32,000 bases of DNA. Origin: Candidatus Methanofrustulum fimipullorum (lineage in GTDB: Archaea > Halobacteriota > Methanosarcinia > Methanosarcinales > Methanosarcinaceae). Under the pieces are notes generated by a model, which made no database searches, was not told where the DNA came from, and saw only the letters and a list, made by a program, of their open reading frames with translations. Shown here one piece after another: positions 7,595 through 23,872 of this stretch. The stretch covers positions 1 through 32,000 of the forward strand of contig JAAYST010000021.1 in assembly GCA_012518265.1 (NCBI GenBank). The letters run 5' to 3'. The position numbers were made by a program, and so were the translations under genes. Within the stretch, counting starts at the first letter, position 1. Every line of letters begins with the position of its first letter.

Positions 7595-7626
7595 TATGAT
7601 TGTAATTTAAGCTTACGGTGATTCAT

Positions 7627-9009
7627 ATGGATTGTGATACTTCTTCAGAATATTGCGGGGAATATATACGCAACAGTGATATATTCATACGATTTGGGGA
7701 GCCGTATCCTGCATTTCAATGTGTATCGTGCAAAGGAGATTTTTTGGAATTTGATTTTTCAAATAATCGAATAAAGATTCGAGTAACCGGACCTGAAATT
7801 ACCGATTTTGTAAAATCTGAAAACGAACAATTTATTAAAGCCGGAATAGGAATTCGTATTTATTTAAAAATTCCAGGATTTTCCGATGATGTTTTGCAAA
7901 ATATCGAAAGTATTATAGAGAAAAAAATCGGGGATTTAATTTCGGAAATAAAAGGAGTATCGCATGAAAATTTGCGAGACGAAATAGTAATAAAGATTAG
8001 AAAGGCGGAAGTTGAAAACGGACTTTCTTTTGAAAAAATCGGATATTGCTTAAGTAAACTGATTTTAAGAGATTACCAATACGTCGATTTCGTATACACG
8101 GAAATAATAACCGACCAAATTTCAGTAAATAAAGAATTGGAAATTGTAAAGCGGATATATGAAAAAAGAGATAAAGCCGCAAAAATGCTTCGTGATGAAA
8201 ACGTTTCAAAATTTTATTTGTGTAAAATGTGCCAAAACGCAACGCCGGAACATGTATGTATTATTACGCCGGATCGGCCGTCCGTTTGCGGAACGATTCA
8301 TTGGCAGGAAGCACAGGCGTTTGAAACTGTTGACCCTTTCGGTTCGATTTCAGGGTTTGAAAAAGGAGAAATTCTAAATGAAAAATCGGGGGAATATAGC
8401 GGAATCAATGAAACTATGAAAACAGAAACGAAAGGCAAAATTAAAAAGCTTTCCCTTTATTCGCTTTATGAAAATCCGCACACGACAGGTGCTTCGGTAA
8501 ATATTATTGCATTTGCAATACCGGAATTAAACGGATTCGGAATAATTGACAGACAAACTGATTTTCCGACAGTAAACGGACTTACGTTTGAAAATTTAAA
8601 AGCTTCAGTTTCAGGCGGAATACAAATTCCGGGATTTATGGGAATCGGTGAGCCTTATTTGTATTCCCCGAACTTCTTTAAAAAAGAAGGAGGATGGAGA
8701 AACGTCGTTTGGATTTCATCAAAACTTAAAGAAAAAGTAATCGATAAAACGGAAAATCGGGAAATTGCGGAAATCATAAAAACAATCCCTACAGAAAACG
8801 ATGTTGCAGATATATATGAATTAAAAAAATATTACAAATTTGATGAAAGGGAAATTAAAGAAATCTATACGGAAAAACCGGAAAATATGAAAAAAATGAA
8901 AATAGAATTTTTAAGTATTCCGATTATCGAAAATTATGAAAATGAAAGCAAAAAACAAAATATTAGAAAAATAAAAATTCCGAATGTGAAAATTACAATA
9001 AAAAAATGA
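7627..9009 (+). CDS. cdhC: Acetyl-CoA decarbonylase/synthase beta-subunit (CdhC/ACS) homolog lacking the Cys-Gly-Cys Ni site
   Basis: Colinear with my memory of archaeal CdhC: FYLCKMCQNATPEHVCIITPDRPSVCGTIHW, GEYSGINE, YSPNFFKKEGGWRNVVWISSKLKEK, and a C-terminal KITIKK tail. GGTGAT SD at 7617-7622 precedes ATG 7627; the track ORF starts at GTG 7618. Confidence 0.85.
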   Translation: MDCDTSSEYCGEYIRNSDIFIRFGEPYPAFQCVSCKGDFLEFDFSNNRIKIRVTGPEITDFVKSENEQFIKAGIGIRIYLKIPGFSDDVLQNIESIIEKKIGDLISEIKGVSHENLRDEIVIKIRKAEVENGLSFEKIGYCLSKLILRDYQYVDFVYTEIITDQISVNKELEIVKRIYEKRDKAAKMLRDENVSKFYLCKMCQNATPEHVCIITPDRPSVCGTIHWQEAQAFETVDPFGSISGFEKGEILNEKSGEYSGINETMKTETKGKIKKLSLYSLYENPHTTGASVNIIAFAIPELNGFGIIDRQTDFPTVNGLTFENLKASVSGGIQIPGFMGIGEPYLYSPNFFKKEGGWRNVVWISSKLKEKVIDKTENREIAEIIKTIPTENDVADIYELKKYYKFDEREIKEIYTEKPENMKKMKIEFLSIPIIENYENESKKQNIRKIKIPNVKITIKK

Positions 9010-9158
9010 TAAAAAATAAAAAAATGATAAAAAATAAAAAAATGAGAAAAAAGAGAAAAAAAGAAAAATGAAAAAAGATGAAATGAAAATGAAAAAAAGA
9101 GATGAATTAAAAAAAATGAATGAAAAATCCATAAAGAAACGAAAAAGAGGAGCGGTAT

Positions 9159-10424
9159 ATGAAAAAACAGATTACGCTTGAATATATCGAGAAGTTGTTA
9201 TCGGAGTCGGGGTCGGAAATTACTGACGAAATTATATTTGGGGATGTCGTTTTTGATAAAAACGATATATCAAGTGACAAATATCCTAAAGCGGTTGAAT
9301 TTTTAGGAAAAGAAACGTATGAAGCCGCTCGAAAATTCGCTGAAATTGCAATTTCTTTAGGCTATGTTCCGGATTCCGATTTAATAGATTTTATTTACCC
9401 CGACAAACGTAAAAAAACATGCGGCGTTTTGAAAGTTAACGAACTTATACCGCAAGTATATAAAAGACAGGAAATAAAATATCAAAACAAAATCCAAGAA
9501 GTCGTATTGGGGGCTACGAAAGCGGATGGCGGGACAAGAAAAAATAAAATTGTGCTTGGCGGAGAAAAAAATGTTTCATATTTCCCGGGCGATGTTTCGT
9601 TTAACGGAAATTATGTATCTCTTGACGTTTTTGATATGCCGATAAGTCTTGCAAGAGCCGTTCGTGAAAGATACGAGGACGTTTTGGAAGATCCGGCGGA
9701 GTGGGCAAAAAAGGCCGTAAAAGAGTATAATGCAGATATGGTTACGCTTCATTTGATTTCAACAGATCCTTCAATAAAAGATACGTCTGCAAGAGAGGCT
9801 TCAAAAACGGTTGAAAACGTTTTGCAGGCGGTAGATGTTCCGATTATAATTGGCGGGTCTGGAAATCCAGAAAAAGACCCTGAAGTTTTGGAAAAAGCGG
9901 CGGAAGCGGCGGAAGGAGAAAGGGTTCTTTTGGCGTCTGCGAATTTGAATATGGATTTTCAAAGAATCGGAAAAGCGGCTGTCAAATACGGTCACGCCGT
10001 TCTTTCTTGGACTCAAATGGATATAAATTCACAAAAGGAATTGAACAGAAAACTGATACGTTTGTGCAATTTAAATCCTGATTCTTTAGTAATGGATCCG
10101 ACAACGGCCGCTCTTGGATACGGTCTTGACTATGCGTATTCGAATATGGAGAGAATCAGACTTTCCGGACTATCAGGCGACCTCGAACTTGCATTTCCGC
10201 TTTCTTCCGGAACCACAAACGCATGGGGCGCACGCGAAGCCTGGATGAAAGAATCCCCAAACCCACAAGATTCCGATTGGGGAATGAGAGAATACAGAGG
10301 ACCGTTATGGGAAGCGGTAACGGGATTAACACTTGCTCAAGCAGGAAACGACTTATTCATGATGATGCATCCGACTGCTGTGGCACTTTTAAAATCGATT
10401 ACGAAAGCATTAGGAGGAAAATGA
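9159..10424 (+). CDS. cdhD: Acetyl-CoA decarbonylase/synthase delta subunit (corrinoid Fe-S protein small subunit)
   Basis: Long blocks match my memory of CdhD: [94 protein letters not shown] lies 6 nt upstream. Confidence 0.9.
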
Positions 10425-10425
10425 A

Positions 10426-11961
10426 ATGAAAGCGACAAGTCCTCTCGATATTTATCCGTATCTGCCTGAAAATTCCGAAGAACTTTTCGACCATACGCGA
10501 ATGTCTCTTGCGCTTCAGCTTATTAATCGTACAATTTCGTTAAAAAGCATAAAAGATAAACTCGTAGAAATTGATCCAACCGAAAAATCGTATAAAGCAC
10601 TTGAAAAATTGTTAGCACCCGCAATCATAGAAGTTTTAATAGGGGTAGGAGAAAACCAAGTAACAATAGGCGGAGACGACGTATTGTTCAGACACAACAA
10701 AACGTTTTATAATAAAACGCCGATTGCAATTTCGATTTCCGATTTGATGTCGAAAGAAGATATGGAAAAAAAAGTTGAAGAAATCGTATCTTTTGAAAAG
10801 TTTTACATCGGAAAAACGATGAAAATAGAAATGATTTCCATATTTTGTGAATCAAACGACCCGGATACATTTGAAAAAGCAACAAAAATAGTAAACGAAA
10901 CCCTTGAAAAAAGCAAAAGAGATCTGCCTCTTGTTTTGTATTCTTACAATCCAAAAGCAATAAGAAAAGCCTTGGAAATTGTAGGCTGCAAAAAACCGCT
11001 AATTTACGGTGCAAATACAGAAAATTGGAGAGAAATGGCAGCTCTCGCACTTGAATTTGAAGTCCCTGTTACAGTTTGCGGAAACGGAGATCTTGATTTG
11101 TTGCAATCGCTTGCTGTTACTTTTGAGTTTAACGGGATTTCCGATATAGTACTTGACCCCGGATTTGAAAATACAAAAGAAGGATTTAAAAATACATTTC
11201 AAAATTACGTATCACTTAGAATTTCAGGAATTAACGGCGATACAAATATAAATTATCCGACCGTATTTTTCGGAAAAATAAATAATTCAAAACAAACAAA
11301 TAAAACAGAACAAATAAAGCAAACAAATCAAACAGAACAAAAAAACAATTTAAAACAAACAAACGATTCTGAAAAATTATTTTCGGAAATTCCTGAATTT
11401 TTGTTACCTGACGAAAACGATATTAAGAATTCTATGTTTGAAACGGTACTCTCGTCTGTCATGACTGTTCGTTATGCCGATTTATTGATTTTGAATTACT
11501 CTTATCCTCATGAGATATTGCCGCTTATTCATTTAGCCGACACTATGTATACGGACCCGAGAGTTCCGGCTTCAGTTACTCCCGGTTTGTACGAAGTAGG
11601 AAATCCTGATGACGAGTCACCCGTTTTATTTACTACGAATTTCGCACTCACATTTCACACAGTAGAAAGCGACCTTTCTTCACAAAACATCGATTGTTAC
11701 TTAATTGCGGTAAACACAGGCGGACTCGGAGTTGAAGCGGCCGCCGCCGGCGGACAACTTACGGCTGAAACTGTTAAAAAAGAATTTGAAAATGCAAACT
11801 TCGACATTTCAAAAACAAAATACAAAACAATAATTATCCCGGGGCTTGCCGCAAGAATCCAAGGAGAACTTGAAATATTGTTAAATGTAAAAGTTTTGGT
11901 CGGACCTACAGATTCAGGAAAGCTTCCGCTGTGGCTTGAAACAAATTTTAACAAAAAATGA
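10426..11961 (+). CDS. cdhE: Acetyl-CoA decarbonylase/synthase gamma-subunit (CdhE) homolog lacking the N-terminal Fe-S cysteines, with a low-complexity insertion
   Basis: SPLDIYPYLP start, VTIGGDDVLFRH, TDPRVPASV, SPVLFTTNFALTFHTVESDL, GVEAAAAGGQLTAE and IIPGLAARIQGE all resemble CdhE/AcsC. The ATG lies 1 nt after the cdhD TGA, and AGGAGG sits inside the cdhD 3' end. Confidence 0.85.
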   Translation: MKATSPLDIYPYLPENSEELFDHTRMSLALQLINRTISLKSIKDKLVEIDPTEKSYKALEKLLAPAIIEVLIGVGENQVTIGGDDVLFRHNKTFYNKTPIAISISDLMSKEDMEKKVEEIVSFEKFYIGKTMKIEMISIFCESNDPDTFEKATKIVNETLEKSKRDLPLVLYSYNPKAIRKALEIVGCKKPLIYGANTENWREMAALALEFEVPVTVCGNGDLDLLQSLAVTFEFNGISDIVLDPGFENTKEGFKNTFQNYVSLRISGINGDTNINYPTVFFGKINNSKQTNKTEQIKQTNQTEQKNNLKQTNDSEKLFSEIPEFLLPDENDIKNSMFETVLSSVMTVRYADLLILNYSYPHEILPLIHLADTMYTDPRVPASVTPGLYEVGNPDDESPVLFTTNFALTFHTVESDLSSQNIDCYLIAVNTGGLGVEAAAAGGQLTAETVKKEFENANFDISKTKYKTIIIPGLAARIQGELEILLNVKVLVGPTDSGKLPLWLETNFNKK

Positions 11962-12127: not shown

Positions 12128-12964
12128 TTGACTCTAGTGTTTAGTTCAACTATAATGGTAAGTACTGCTGAACAAAACACAGACGAGACAGAAGGACGCT
12201 GTTTGTCAGAATTAAAATTAGATTTTGATATTATGAGCGTTAATGCAGAAAATATGTCAATATGGGAAAGAGCAAAAATTGCAGAGACTTTAAGACTTGC
12301 GATTGAAAAAGAAACGAGAAAAGATATTGAAAACAGTCATAGAATGACAGAAGAATCTTATGAAATAGCACCATGTGCCTCACAACCTGTATATCTGGGT
12401 GCAAATACTTCATTTAATGCGGCGGATTATAGAAATAGTGGAACAAGTAAGTGGGGAATCTCTAAAAAAGTAGTGAACTCTTCAGCAGCCACATATAATA
12501 ATACGGTCCAAACATTTGCTTTTACATACCCAGGTGTTGGTGGCTGTAGTGCATGGGCATATGTAGGTCAAAAATTTCATATAATTGGCCAGGGATCTCA
12601 AACAGCAAACATTAGAATGGTTGGATCATACAATGGTACTACTGAAGCTCTGGGGGGTGGAACAGGTAACACTAAAATAACCTTAGTTGTAAAAGACCTA
12701 ACTACAGGAACAGCATATACAGAAGAGATATATGATGAGACAGTAAGTGCTTTAGGTGTTAAGCAAGTAAAAAGAACATTTAATTCCGGAAAAAGTGTTA
12801 TGTTACAAGCGGGGCATGAATATGTAGCGTATATACTGTTAGAAGGTTCAGGAGCAGCTGTTACACTAGGAGAAGGTGGATCTGATTTTGGACCATGGGA
12901 TTATGGACCTTATGACCCGCCGAACGAAGGAGCAAGATATTCAAGAATTTATATAGATTTTTGA
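12128..12964 (+). CDS. Secreted protein of unknown function; the 5' end is ambiguous (likely true start ATG 12085, out of frame across an A8 tract)
   Basis: 278-aa ORF from an artefactual-looking TTG start. The frame stays open back to 12089 and encodes KKIPSKLIPILVILTLVFSSTIMVSTAEQ, a signal peptide missing its Met. GGAG plus ATG sit at 12074-12087, one nucleotide out of frame. Confidence 0.7.
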   Translation: MTLVFSSTIMVSTAEQNTDETEGRCLSELKLDFDIMSVNAENMSIWERAKIAETLRLAIEKETRKDIENSHRMTEESYEIAPCASQPVYLGANTSFNAADYRNSGTSKWGISKKVVNSSAATYNNTVQTFAFTYPGVGGCSAWAYVGQKFHIIGQGSQTANIRMVGSYNGTTEALGGGTGNTKITLVVKDLTTGTAYTEEIYDETVSALGVKQVKRTFNSGKSVMLQAGHEYVAYILLEGSGAAVTLGEGGSDFGPWDYGPYDPPNEGARYSRIYIDF

Positions 12965-20068: not shown

Positions 20069-20818
20069 TTAGCCGAATCTTCCGCTAACGTAATCTAAAG
20101 TTTCTTTATTATCCGGGTTCTTAAAGATTTTTTCTGTCGGTCCGAACTCTAACATTTTCCCTAAGTAGAAAAACGCCGTCATGTCTGAAATTCTTACCGC
20201 TTGTTGCATATTGTGAGTTACAACTACGATAGTATAATCTTTTTTAAGTTCCATTATAAGTTTTTCTATTTGGTTTGTAGAAATCGGATCCAAAGCACTA
20301 CAAGGTTCATCGAACAAAATAATGTCAGGTTTTACGGCCAATGTTCTTGCTATACAAAGTCTTTGTTGCTGACCGCCGCTTAAACTCATTGCATTTGTTT
20401 TTAAACGGTCTTCTACTTCATCCCAAAGAGCACTTGCCCTTAAAGAATCTTCAACAATTCCCGGCAATTGACTTTTAGGAACACCGTGAATTTTTGGACC
20501 ATATGCAATATTGTCATATATAGACATCGGAAACGGGTTTGCCTTTTGAAAAACCATTCCGACCTTTTTCCTCAGTTGAGCAACATTTACAGATTTGTCA
20601 TAAATATCCGTATCATTGATCGTTATGGAACCTTCAACTCTACAGTTTGGAATAGTATCGTTCATTCTGTTAATGCAACGCAAAAATGTGGATTTACCGC
20701 ATCCGGAAGGACCAATTAAAGCAGTTACACTTTTATGAGGAATTAACATTTCAATATCATATAGTGCTTGGTTGGAACCGTACCACAAATTTAAGTTCTT
20801 AACATCTATATTAGTCAT
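20069..20818 (-). CDS. pstB: Phosphate ABC transporter ATP-binding protein
   Basis: Walker [10 protein letters not shown], signature LSGGQQQR, Walker B ILFDEP. Size and N-terminus are PstB-like, and the gene follows pstA. Confidence 0.95.
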
Positions 20819-20946
20819 TAAAAGACAGAGCTCCTTGAATTTAAATCGATTATAGTGATCTATATATTTTTATTTATTTATTTTTATTTTTTAATTTATT
20901 TTTAAACATTTTTATATTAATCGCATTATTTGTAATTATTTACGTA

Positions 20947-21819
20947 TTATGCTCCGATTTTCATTTTCTTTCTTTGTCTTTGTCTTATAAATATAGCTAT
21001 TAAATTAAGAGACAAAACGAGAATCAAAAGAACGAGAGCCGTTCCGTATTGTATCGGTTCCAACTTTTCCATATTGGTTCCTGATGTTGCCAAAACGTAC
21101 AAATGGTACGGAAGTGCCATAAATTGTGAAAGGGGGCTGTCCGGAAGTACGGGGTGGAAATATGCCACACCGGTTAACAATATCGGTGCGGTTTCACCTG
21201 CAACACGACCTATTCCGAGGATAATTCCCGTCATAATACCGGGAGCTGCTATCGGAAGAACAACTCTTATTATAGTTTCTACTTTTGTAACACCTAATGC
21301 AAGTGAGCCGTCTTTCAATTCTTTAGGAACAACTTCCAATGCTTCTTGAGTTGATCGAATAACAACCGGCAAAACAAGCAATCCCAAAGTTAAAGCGGAA
21401 GCAATAAGTGACGGGCCGAAATTTAAGTACTTAACGAAAAGTGCAAGACCGAAAAGACCGAAAACGACAGAAGGTGTTCCGGCAAGGTTACTTATAGCCA
21501 TTTCAATTAACCATTTCAATTTGCCGGGCCTTGAATATTCAGTCAAATAAATTGCTGTAAGAACTCCGGTAGGAATTGAAAAAAGCATTGCGCCTACTAT
21601 CAAATAAAATGAACCAATAATAGCAGGGAACACACCGCCTTCAGTCATTCTGTTTTTAGGACTTTCAAATATAAATTCAAGTGAAAGAGCACTATATCCG
21701 TTTATGAAAATATAACCGAGTATAACGACAATAAACAAAAGAACCAACAGAATAGAAACTCTCAAGAAGAAAAATGCTATTTTTTGATTCCTGTCTGCTG
21801 CTGTAGTGACATTTTTCAT
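20947..21819 (-). CDS. pstA: Phosphate ABC transporter permease PstA
   Basis: 290 aa, 6 TM, with the permease loop SLALGVTKVETIIRVVLPIAAPGIMTGIILGIGRVAGETAP. Position in the pstSCAB order supports the call. Confidence 0.9.
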   Translation of the reverse strand: MKNVTTAADRNQKIAFFFLRVSILLVLLFIVVILGYIFINGYSALSLEFIFESPKNRMTEGGVFPAIIGSFYLIVGAMLFSIPTGVLTAIYLTEYSRPGKLKWLIEMAISNLAGTPSVVFGLFGLALFVKYLNFGPSLIASALTLGLLVLPVVIRSTQEALEVVPKELKDGSLALGVTKVETIIRVVLPIAAPGIMTGIILGIGRVAGETAPILLTGVAYFHPVLPDSPLSQFMALPYHLYVLATSGTNMEKLEPIQYGTALVLLILVLSLNLIAIFIRQRQRKKMKIGA

Positions 21820-21840
21820 ATAATCATCTCAAATTTATCA

Positions 21841-22761
21841 TCATTGATCCATTAATCTGAATCTTCTTTTCACATAGTCTGCAACCATGTTTATTAAAAA
21901 AGTCAAAATAAACAATACGATACCTACTGCAAATAATGCGTGGTAGTGGTCACTTCCTTGCGGCACTTCTCCCATTTCAAGAGCAATCGTTGCCGTCATA
22001 GTTCTGACAGGCTGAATTATTCCTTCAGGAAACCCGGGGATTATTGCCATATTTCCTGTAACCATCATTACGGTCATGGTTTCGCCTATTGCACGACCCA
22101 TGCCGAGCATAATGGATGCGGTAATTCCCGAAAGTGCGGCAGGCATAACTACTTTGTATATTGTTTGCCATTTCGTGGATCCTAAAGCCAAAGCACCGTC
22201 TTTTAACGACTTCGGAACCGAGCTTATTGCATCCTCCGATATCGATATGACTGTCGGAAGAGCCATAACTCCCAAAATTATCGCTCCGGTAAGTGCGGTT
22301 TGACCTGTTGCAAGTCCGAACAAGTCCTGAATGAGCGGAACCATTACGACAAGACCGAAGAAACCGAATACTACAGACGGAATTCCTGCCAAAATCTCAA
22401 CTACCGATTTTAAAAAGAATGCAGAACCTGGTGACGCAATTTCAGAAATATATATAGCTGATGCAAGACCTATCGGAATTGCAACACACATTGAACCGAA
22501 AGTCACAAGGAGTGTTCCTAAAATTAAAGGTATTAGTCCGAAACGCGGATTTGAAGACGTCGGATACCAATATTCACCGGAAAAAAACTCTAAAAACGGG
22601 TATTTCTCAAAAAAGACAAATCCTTCTCTAAATAAAAATAAACAGAGAAGAAAAAGAGAAAATACGACTATTAAAGAAACTGCACTTAGAGTTACTCCGG
22701 TCCCTTTTTCAACTCTTTCACTTAACACATTATCAGATCCTATAATATATGTTATAGTCAA
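21841..22761 (-). CDS. pstC: Phosphate ABC transporter permease PstC
   Basis: Permease loop GALALGSTKWQTIYKVVMPAALSGITASIMLGMGRAIGETM. The start is uncertain: TTG 22761 (track) or GTG 22728. Confidence 0.9.
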   Translation of the reverse strand: MTITYIIGSDNVLSERVEKGTGVTLSAVSLIVVFSLFLLCLFLFREGFVFFEKYPFLEFFSGEYWYPTSSNPRFGLIPLILGTLLVTFGSMCVAIPIGLASAIYISEIASPGSAFFLKSVVEILAGIPSVVFGFFGLVVMVPLIQDLFGLATGQTALTGAIILGVMALPTVISISEDAISSVPKSLKDGALALGSTKWQTIYKVVMPAALSGITASIMLGMGRAIGETMTVMMVTGNMAIIPGFPEGIIQPVRTMTATIALEMGEVPQGSDHYHALFAVGIVLFILTFLINMVADYVKRRFRLMDQ

Positions 22762-22837
22762 ACAAAATTATCGTAAAACAAAAATTATTGAATCAACCGA
22801 TTAAATCGGTTGTTCAAATAATCGGTTGTTTAAATAA

Positions 22838-23728
22838 TCAGTTGTTCGGGAAATAACCTACTTCTGTAATTATTTCTTTTCCTTCAGAACTCAATACAAA
22901 GTTGATGAAGTTGTCGACTGCTTGGTTTTGTTTGTTTGAATCGGTGTAGAAGAAAAGTTCTCTTGCAAGCGGGTATTTTTGAGCCAATATGTTTGATTCT
23001 TTGGGTTCAACCGCATTACCGTTTCCTTCTTTGTCAAGTGCAAGTCCTTTTGTGGTGTCGTCAAGGTATGCAAAGCCGATGTATCCGATTGCACCTTTGT
23101 TTCTCTGAACTTCTTTGACGATTCCGCCTGTTGTAGCCTGTGCAAGTGCGTCGGGTCTGTAGTCTCCGCCTTCCAATATTTCTTCTTTGAAGTATTCGTA
23201 TGTACCGGAGCTGCTGTCTCTTGTCATTACAGCGATAGTTCTGTCTTCTCCGCCTACATCTTTCCAGTTGCTGATTTTACCGCTGTAAATTGCGTTTAAT
23301 TGTTCGTATGTGAGGGATGAAACAGGGTTTTCCTTGTTTACTATAACTACAATACCGTCCCATGCAATTATGTGTTCTTTAGTGTTTATACCTTTTGCTT
23401 TTGCATTTTCGATTTCGGATGATTTAATGCTTCTTGAGGCCATTGCAATATCGGTTGTACCGTCAATTAATGCTGTAATTCCTACACCGGAACCTCCACC
23501 TGTTACTGAAACAGTTCTGCCGCTGTATTTTTCCATGTAAGTTTCAGCTTCGGATTGTGCCAAAGGAAGAACAGTATCCGATCCTTTAACAGATACACTT
23601 TCAGGAGCGGAAGGGGTGGTAGTATTGTTTGTATTACGGTCATCATCTATACAGCCTGCCGCACCTAATAAAAGAATAGCAGTAAGCCCTATTAAAAATA
23701 ACATTTTGAATTTGTTTGCGTTAGTCAT
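22838..23728 (-). CDS. pstS: Phosphate-binding protein PstS (lipoprotein-type signal)
   Basis: Signal peptide plus lipobox-like LLLGAAGC, then GGGSGVG and TRDSSSGTYEYF phosphate-binding motifs. ATG 23728 is preferred over the track's TTG 23803 extension. Confidence 0.9.
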   Translation of the reverse strand: MTNANKFKMLFLIGLTAILLLGAAGCIDDDRNTNNTTTPSAPESVSVKGSDTVLPLAQSEAETYMEKYSGRTVSVTGGGSGVGITALIDGTTDIAMASRSIKSSEIENAKAKGINTKEHIIAWDGIVVIVNKENPVSSLTYEQLNAIYSGKISNWKDVGGEDRTIAVMTRDSSSGTYEYFKEEILEGGDYRPDALAQATTGGIVKEVQRNKGAIGYIGFAYLDDTTKGLALDKEGNGNAVEPKESNILAQKYPLARELFFYTDSNKQNQAVDNFINFVLSSEGKEIITEVGYFPNN

Positions 23729-23802
23729 AATATTTACTCTTCCAAGTATTACTATTTCTATAATTACAATGGACCACCGGGTTGGTTTTACGAAAATATT
23801 CA

Positions 23803-23872
23803 ACAGATATTCATTAAATATTTAACAGATATTTATTAGATATTCATTAAAATATTTGACATATATTTGTTA
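23803..23872. promoter_or_regulatory. Repeated AT-rich motif (ACAGATATTYATTA; two 23-24 nt copies AGATATTCATTAAA(A)TATTTRACA) upstream of pstS
   Basis: Long copies at 23805-23827 and 23838-23861, with a shorter related copy at 23825-23838. They lie 75-145 nt upstream of the pstS ATG in the divergent intergenic region. Confidence 0.35.

Follow-up and report, generated by a model that had tools for sequence, protein, structure and literature searches.

The large subunit of the corrinoid iron-sulfur protein (CoFeSP), named CdhE or gamma in archaea and AcsC or CfsA in bacteria, consists of an N-terminal helical domain, a TIM barrel and a corrinoid-binding domain, and is paired with the small subunit CdhD. 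The N-terminal domain carries a [4Fe-4S] cluster on four cysteines with the spacing C-x2-C-x4-C-x16-C. Work on a C20A variant by Menon and Ragsdale (1998-1999) reportedly supports a role of this cluster in reactivation. The cluster of the bacterial protein has been assigned, as a hypothesis, to the reductive reactivation of the cobalt and not to methyl transfer, and the archaeal CoFeSP performs pterin methyl transfer by itself (PMC13370988). The CdhE described here is encoded in a 32,000-nucleotide stretch (contig JAAYST010000021.1, positions 1 to 32,000; this whole stretch is called the window). It shares the architecture and the pairing of the known large subunits (4djd_C, 2ycl_A, 2h9a_A and 9fzy_F). 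Unlike them, it lacks all four [4Fe-4S] ligands, does not lie beside cdhA, cdhB or cooC, and contains a long low-complexity linker.

Cluster-free corrinoid proteins are known from other systems. MtaC and MtmC with RamA, the O-demethylase corrinoid proteins with their activating enzyme, and HgcA with the ferredoxin HgcB all rely on a separate Fe-S protein for the re-reduction of Co(II), which is the mode proposed here. The activase's own cluster can pass an electron to Co(II) in an ATP-dependent manner (PMC4934906). These proteins differ from the window's CdhE in ancestry and architecture. The latter keeps both barrels of the CdhE/CdhD pair and a vestige of the Fe-S domain, and no activase or ferredoxin partner is found beside cdhE in the window. 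HgcA is homologous to the corrinoid domain of CdhE, and HgcA models of NCBIfam match this domain of the window's protein at 2e-16 to 3e-20.

The closest named homologs are the cdhCDE or cdhDE remnants of Methanimicrococcus and Methanolapillus, which comprise the same gene set in the same clade, without cdhAB and in acetate-requiring organisms. The window's lineage differs from them in having also lost the first cysteine of the motif (Cys1), and in a CdhE identity of just 42-46%. Thomas et al. 2021 (PMC9723798) and Protasov et al. 2024 (PMC11362671) recorded the presence or absence of cdhCDE and cdhDE, assumed a working CdhCDE and described the differing subunit numbers as intriguing. Losses of Fe-S or nickel ligands are not reported in the searchable text and supplements of these two papers, the literature covered being open access. 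The retention of cdhCDE or cdhDE is already published, and the ligand losses are new as far as the open-access literature shows.

The gene and its junction with cdhD lie as follows.

10426-11961, + strand: cdhE, a 511-amino acid open reading frame (ORF) of the archaeal CdhE/gamma and bacterial AcsC/CfsA family.
10413-10417, + strand: Shine-Dalgarno-like GGAGG, read from the sequence.
10422-10424, + strand: TGA stop codon of cdhD, read from the sequence.
10426-10428, + strand: ATG start codon of cdhE, read from the sequence.

The identity of the protein is well supported. It scores 453.5 bits against the NCBIfam gamma-subunit model NF003195 (cut-off 306) over residues 3-510, matches PF03599 at 1.3e-114, and aligns with the CoFeSP large subunits of the PDB at E values of 1e-55 to 1e-61. 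No Pfam match to PF04060, the Fe-S domain, was obtained at E <= 0.1. Positions 10459-10563 translate as YLPENSEELFDHTRMSLALQLINRTISLKSIKDKL, which corresponds to residues 12-46. When aligned with Moorella AcsC (4djd_C), the ligands Cys17, Cys20, Cys25 and Cys42 face S17 (10474-10476), L20 (10483-10485), R25 (10498-10500) and I42 (10549-10551), respectively. The whole protein contains four cysteines, at residues 141, 188, 218 and 424. A sequence-only reading of this DNA had proposed that every N-terminal Fe-S ligand was gone from an open reading frame, that no cysteine occurred until about residue 141, and that the flanks (SPLDIYPYLP... and ...LLAP..IGVGE) were still recognizable. Each of these statements holds: the ORF is intact from 10426 to 11961, both flanks are seen in CdhE, and the first cysteine is residue 141 exactly.

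The start codon leaves little room for a hidden segment. The stop-to-stop frame of cdhE opens just four codons before the ATG, the GGAGG lies 8 nucleotides 5′ of it, and, as the same reading had noted, one base separates the cdhD stop codon from the cdhE start. This layout suggests translational coupling of the two genes. A tblastn search of the window with canonical Fe-S domains matched the N-terminus of CdhE only, and the sole in-frame CxxC...C pattern inside a real gene of the window belongs to the ferredoxin FrhG. Within the window, nothing supports the idea that the motif comes from an upstream segment or from a split gene. Nine contigs, assembled from independent metagenomes (biogas and digester), code for an identical CdhE, deposited as NLI61969.1, so the loss of the cysteines is not an assembly artefact. 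Nor is it due to chance, because the motif is kept in all 69 other CdhE of the Methanosarcinales and in 106 of about 113 family representatives, as described below. The loss of the [4Fe-4S] ligands of CdhE is confirmed.

The same loss was found throughout the intestinal Methanosarcinaceae, a clade that is taken here to comprise Methanimicrococcus, Methanolapillus, a rumen metagenome-assembled genome (MAG), and the digester lineage of the window with its sister (L005). Relatives were retrieved from the species-representative genomes of GTDB by an alignment-based scan, as a single-protein query gave none there; the genome of the window is not among the representatives searched. The best CdhE homologs, from Methanimicrococcus, Methanolapillus, rumen and termite MAGs and the sister lineage, all lack PF04060, which is present in the next-best homologs, the canonical CdhE of the Methanosarcinaceae. 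The sister lineage is the closest to the window (64% identity by BLAST, 68% in the full alignment). Cys2 to Cys4 have been lost in 28 of 28 aligned clade sequences: Cys2 is replaced by Leu in most of them, Cys3 always by Lys or Arg, and Cys4 variably, and a one-residue deletion precedes Cys1. The full motif is kept in 69 of 69 other Methanosarcinales CdhE from the species-representative genomes. The shared derived residues and the deletion point to a single origin of the loss. Cys1 itself is kept in 23 of the 28, and its losses are scattered (lost in the window, kept in its sister), which indicates that no residual cluster is being preserved. The pattern also occurs in the complete genomes of cultured strains. 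The loss of the cysteines is a trait of the whole clade and not a defect of a single genome.

Within the wider family, this condition is rare. A survey of 1.84 billion representative proteins in 50%-identity clusters was carried out, and the best 150 clusters were taken. Approximately 39 of these are N-terminally truncated fragments, and the strict motif is present in 106 of the roughly 113 clusters that have an N-terminus. Most or all motif cysteines are missing from just four of the clusters that have an N-terminus, and this clade accounts for two of these. The remaining cases are a lone cdhE of a Candidatus Altarchaeaceae MAG (L088, 1711-3093), located beside RFC and PCNA genes and devoid of N-terminal-domain cysteines, and a cdhD-cdhE pair (L089, 166-2387; JGI 3300009169) with no cdhC upstream and no N-terminal-domain cysteine in CdhE. 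The replacement residues differ, so these losses look independent, and both are found in orphan contexts. Minor variants of the motif were also seen: P0128 and P0136 have the spacing C-x2-C-x3-C, one residue shorter and with four cysteines, and the three-member cluster P0159 has a Tyr at Cys1 (Y-x2-C-x4-C...C). All of these are otherwise ordinary CdhE/AcsC proteins.

It is likely, but not proven, that the organism of the window belongs to the intestinal clade. In a neighbour-joining tree of CdhE without the N-terminal domain, the window and its sister fall with the Cys-less clade. The alanyl-tRNA synthetase (AlaRS) of the window is 65-67% identical to those of Methanimicrococcus and Methanolapillus and 60-62% identical to those of other Methanosarcinaceae; the corresponding values for CdhD are 71-73% to the clade versus 55-65% to others. 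The affiliation stops short of proof as these are single-gene distance analyses with long branches. On such distances, the nearest named relatives of the window are Methanimicrococcus and Methanolapillus, and its lineage appears as a deep, AT-rich digester branch. The intestinal clade has been described as containing Methanimicrococcus, Methanolapillus and ‘Methanofrustulum’, the last with mammalian-gut MAGs and one digester MAG (PMC11362671). The window also carries a pst-like phosphate ATP-binding cassette (ABC) transporter operon (20069-23803, - strand) coding for a substrate-binding protein, two permeases and an ATPase. This phosphate ABC (pst) system is reported to have been lost in Methanimicrococcus blatticola (PMC9723798). 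The retention of the operon suggests that the digester lineage may be less reduced than its gut relatives.

The Cdh genes of the clade remain under selection. Pairwise Nei-Gojobori estimates of the ratio of nonsynonymous to synonymous substitution rates (dN/dS) were compared between clade pairs and canonical pairs. The values are 0.03-0.06 in the clade against 0.02-0.05 in canonical pairs for CdhD, 0.10-0.14 against 0.03-0.08 for CdhE, and 0.09-0.23 against 0.04-0.06 for CdhC. The synonymous sites of the N-terminal domain are saturated between the window and L005, and Methanimicrococcus pairs were used for this domain instead. Its dN/dS there is 0.10-0.17, which resembles that of the barrel. 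In Methanolapillus, which has no cdhC, the dN of the N-terminal domain equals that of the whole CdhE. All three frames are intact across lineages at 42-68% amino acid identity, with saturated synonymous sites. Since dN/dS is far below 1 and the constraint on the Cys-less domain matches that on the remainder of CdhE, cdhC, cdhD and cdhE are not pseudogenes in this clade; all three are under purifying selection.

Conservation is unevenly distributed among the domains. The columns that are invariant in canonical sequences are kept in the clade at 81% in the CdhD barrel, 80% in the CdhE corrinoid domain (86% in the window) and 66% in the CdhE barrel. The figure is 39% in the CdhE N-terminal domain, 40% in the A3-like part of CdhC and 24% in its A2-like part. 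CdhE/AcsC proteins bind a cobamide base-off and alternate between Co(I) and CH3-Co(III), for which the well-kept corrinoid domain gives indirect support in the clade. The domains of the window's CdhE are:

10426-10599, + strand: Cys-less N-terminal domain, the former [4Fe-4S] domain, residues 1-58 (from alignment, AlphaFold2 and dN/dS).
10600-11280, + strand: TIM-barrel domain, residues 59-285 (PF03599; predicted local distance difference test score, pLDDT, mostly >90).
11281-11430, + strand: low-complexity linker rich in N, Q, K and T, residues 286-335, specific to the lineage of the window.
11431-11961, + strand: C-terminal corrinoid-binding domain, residues 336-511, and stop codon; aligns with the corrinoid domain of 4djd_C and 2h9a_A.

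AlphaFold2, supplied with an alignment of Cys-less sequences only, predicts the N-terminal domain as five helices with block pLDDT values of 78-91. The best fold matches of the whole model are the CoFeSP large subunits 4djd_C, 2ycl_A and 9fzy_F, and the motifs LFTTNFALT and TVESDL of the corrinoid domain are conserved. Disorder is predicted for the linker that joins the TIM barrel to the corrinoid domain (pLDDT < 50 at residues 287-312), and this linker is gapped in the other clade members, including the sister L005. The rumen-lineage CdhE homologs P0025 and P0031 have different long inserts, which lie in the linker and in the N-terminal region.

The second subunit with altered cofactor ligands is CdhC, the beta subunit of acetyl-CoA synthase (ACS).

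7618-9009, + strand: cdhC-like gene, an ACS beta homolog without the Ni-Ni site, 463 amino acids from GTG 7618.
8221-8289, + strand: cysteines of the A-cluster [4Fe-4S] cubane, C202, C205, C214 and C224 (C-x2-C-x8-C-x9-C), facing C189, C192, C201 and C211 of 9c0s_E.
8488-8496, + strand: G291-A292-S293 in place of the Ni-binding Cys-Gly-Cys, facing C278-G279-C280 of 9c0s_E.

Gene callers start this gene at ATG 7627, giving 460 amino acids. The protein matches PF19436 (5e-60) and PF03598 (1.7e-18), its best PDB match is the Methanosarcina CdhC 9c0s_E, and it falls below both NCBIfam cut-offs (355.5 versus 372 and 313 versus 356). The four cubane cysteines are invariant across the CdhC of the clade. 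No CdhC of the clade has the first cysteine of the nickel motif. L005 and the rumen MAG are the only members with the second, and the window and Methanimicrococcus have lost both. The loss of the nickel site proposed by the sequence-only reading is thereby borne out. The A-cluster of the window's CdhC is predicted to be incomplete, with only the Ni2 part of the cofactor site lost.

The third gene of the locus is the best conserved of the three.

9159-10424, + strand: cdhD, corrinoid protein small subunit, 421 amino acids (NF003375, 593 bits; cut-off 488).

The three genes are co-oriented in a window of approximately 35% G+C. The canonical order is cdhA-cdhB-cdhC-cooC-like-cdhD-cdhE, in which the cooC-like gene of 250-270 amino acids lies between cdhC and cdhD. 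The order in the clade is cdhC-cdhD-cdhE, reduced to cdhD-cdhE alone in Methanolapillus and in L016, a Methanimicrococcus-like MAG. No cdhA, cdhB or cooC was found by tblastn in the window or within 10 kb of any clade locus, and the same queries match 36-41 canonical loci. Published genomes of the clade lack cdhAB genome-wide, and acetate is needed by all isolates (PMC9723798, PMC11362671).

On the opposite strand, 5′ of the window's cdhCDE, are yhbY and alaS; two uncharacterized ORFs and then frhBGDA follow on the 3′ side. The window and L005 share a conserved gene order: DUF6935-alaS-yhbY, cdhCDE and, further 3′ past non-conserved ORFs, frhBGDA. The ORF just 3′ of cdhE (12128-12964, 278 amino acids) has no Pfam match and is not conserved in L005, and its start varies with the gene caller among contigs (269, 278 or 292 amino acids). 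The cdhC-cdhD spacer (9010-9158 in the window, 8600-8733 in L001) differs in length by 18 bp between two contigs that are otherwise identical and whose three Cdh proteins are 100% identical; gene callers place a 37-amino acid ORF in this spacer, overlapping the start of cdhD.

In other lineages, NMD3 follows cdhE, as seen in Methanosarcina (L043, 12036-13097), Methanimicrococcus (L013, 11338-13330) and Methanolapillus (L008, 11527-13555), and TFIIE-alpha follows NMD3 in the last two genera. It seems that the remnants in Methanimicrococcus and Methanolapillus still sit at the ancestral cdh locus, from which cdhAB and cooC would have been deleted in place. NMD3 and TFIIE-alpha were rejected as functional partners; they are housekeeping genes that follow cdhE in Methanosarcina too, and serve as a marker of the orthologous locus. 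Directly 5′ of cdhD in Methanolapillus ohkumae, at the place of cdhC, is a DUF362 gene into which a two-[4Fe-4S] ferredoxin module has been inserted (L008, 7419-8573). This gene, with its two 4Fe-4S motifs, was rejected as a replacement for the cluster because it is not conserved in M. millepedarum and M. africanus, and its position next to cdhD is probably coincidental.

The explanation towards which we lean, with modest confidence, is that the cluster-free CdhDE acts as an anabolic methyl-tetrahydromethanopterin (H4MPT):corrinoid methyltransferase or methyl carrier, uncoupled from CO chemistry and reactivated by an outside reductant. The ligand losses and their distribution in the clade, the loss of genes around the operon and the purifying selection are all observed, and cobamide binding, methyl transfer with H4MPT, the electron source and the methyl acceptor of CdhDE are inferred. 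The ancestor of the clade would have lost cdhA, cdhB and the cooC-like gene for nickel insertion, and with them the CO chemistry and the usual low-potential electron source of the complex. Afterwards, the sites serving CO chemistry or the reactivation driven by carbon monoxide dehydrogenase (CODH) and ferredoxin, namely the CdhC Ni-Ni site and the CdhE [4Fe-4S] cluster, would have been lost in turn. Selection still preserves the methyl-handling core, made up of the barrels of CdhD and CdhE, the corrinoid domain of CdhE and the former Fe-S domain. This last part would persist as a cluster-free helical module, probably with a structural or docking role; in the canonical complex, the CdhE N-terminal domain and CdhD form the docking surface for domain A3 of ACS (PMC13370988). 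An outside source, such as an ATP-dependent activase of the RamA/RACo type, would return Co(II) to Co(I). The pathway for making H4MPT is still present in the clade, as are Mtr and Mer (PMC9723798, PMC11362671). That these organisms have an activase is assumed from their methyltransferase-dependent metabolism; RamA is not tabulated in the supplementary tables of Protasov et al. (PMC11362671).

Several points weigh against this explanation. Mtr, the presumed supplier of methyl-H4MPT, has not been lost, so the need for a second corrinoid carrier is not evident. Docking cannot fully explain the N-terminal domain, as it is still constrained in Methanolapillus, which has no cdhC. The dN/dS values of CdhE and CdhC in the clade are two to three times those of their canonical homologs, which implies that some relaxation has occurred. 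No activase domain was detected among the genes of the window, including the 278-amino acid ORF, a membrane protein and frhBGDA. The paper on the cockroach-gut metatranscriptome makes no mention of cdh transcription. The analysis of the window's genome covers 32 kb, and a second, canonical cdh operon may exist elsewhere in it. A bolder version, to which we assign a low probability, takes CdhDE as a stand-alone shuttle that would carry the methyl group from methyl-H4MPT via a protein-bound methyl-cobamide to anabolic methyltransferases, a MetE-type enzyme being the candidate, with the nickel-free cubane of CdhC, where kept, as the point of electron entry. To our knowledge, the physiological corrinoid donor of the archaeal MetE-type methylcobalamin:homocysteine methyltransferase has never been identified.

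The part of CdhC in this scheme can also be considered in its own right. Its nickel-free [4Fe-4S] cubane could replace the CdhE cluster in trans, which would make CdhC the electron-entry subunit for cobalt reactivation. The cubane cysteines are invariant in the clade even though the nickel ligands are gone, and CdhC is under purifying selection. In addition, A3 of ACS docks on CdhD and the CdhE N-terminal domain with the A-cluster near the cobalt (PMC13370988), and under this proposal such docking would be a reason to keep both CdhC and the cluster-free domain. However, Methanolapillus and L016 keep a Cys-less CdhE without any cdhC, so that a relay through CdhC is not a general requirement, and as to cubane assembly and redox potential the proposal is purely inferential. 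We consider it doubtful. It is highly improbable that CdhCDE remains active in acetyl-CoA synthesis or cleavage, or in CO consumption, through an alternative metal site and an external cluster. Thomas et al. 2021 place CdhCDE in anabolism and suggest CO detoxification (PMC9723798); the conserved cubane cysteines include the one bridging to nickel, and one nickel-motif cysteine remains in L005 and the rumen MAG. Nonetheless, no clade CdhC has the cysteine that coordinates the two nickel ions, and the window and Methanimicrococcus have neither cysteine of the motif. The clade loci have no cooC-like maturation gene, the A-cluster domain keeps just 40% of the canonical-invariant columns, and Methanolapillus has the same Cys-less cdhDE without cdhC. 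Acetate is needed by all cultured members (PMC11362671).

The genes might instead be slowly decaying relics, useless since the loss of cdhAB, whose ORFs persist only for lack of time. Redox ligands are gone from two subunits, CdhC scores below the NCBIfam cut-offs, cdhC has been lost outright in Methanolapillus and L016, and the elevated dN/dS of CdhE and CdhC is also in line with decay. This is very unlikely given that the frames remain intact at 42-68% amino acid identity and saturated synonymous sites, and that dN/dS (0.03-0.23) is far from 1, with CdhD constrained as in autotrophic relatives. The residues replacing the cysteines are themselves conserved, as is the gene order between the window and L005. 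Finally, the window derives from metagenome assemblies, and an incorrectly assigned start, a frameshift or chimerism of the MAG contig could in principle hide the Fe-S domain. Such an annotation or assembly artefact is effectively refuted: the same protein occurs on nine contigs from independent samples and assemblers, a stop lies four codons before an ATG that follows GGAGG and the cdhD stop codon, complete genomes of cultured strains show the same pattern, and the rest of the window does not code for an Fe-S domain.

Partial CODH/ACS sets in the service of one-carbon anabolism are known outside this clade. According to Zhuang et al. 2014 (PNAS), Dehalococcoides mccartyi reportedly has ACS and CoFeSP without CODH, and cleaves acetyl-CoA to obtain methyl groups. 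The likeness lies in the partial set, used for one-carbon anabolism with no CO2 fixation by that route. The difference is that ACS is thought to be active there, whereas the clade has lost the nickel site of ACS and the cluster of CoFeSP; with both gone, acetyl-CoA cleavage is not expected in the clade.

Metabolic reconstructions of methyl-reducing methanogens from guts and digesters list CdhCDE as functional, in anabolism or CO detoxification. The ligand losses argue against CO-dependent roles and against a simple presence/absence scoring of Cdh subunits. The clade offers a naturally evolved, selection-maintained CoFeSP without its cluster, and an ACS with a cubane and no nickel. As several members are in pure culture, the role of the CoFeSP cluster and the function of a nickel-free ACS are directly testable. 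The two independent orphan cases fit, and suggest, a general rule whereby a CoFeSP uncoupled from CODH loses its Fe-S cluster. If the stand-alone shuttle were true, the CoFeSP cluster and the nickels of the A-cluster would be dispensable modules, revealed by a natural experiment, and a function would be named for orphan cdhDE elsewhere, as in the Altarchaeaceae case and the L089 pair.

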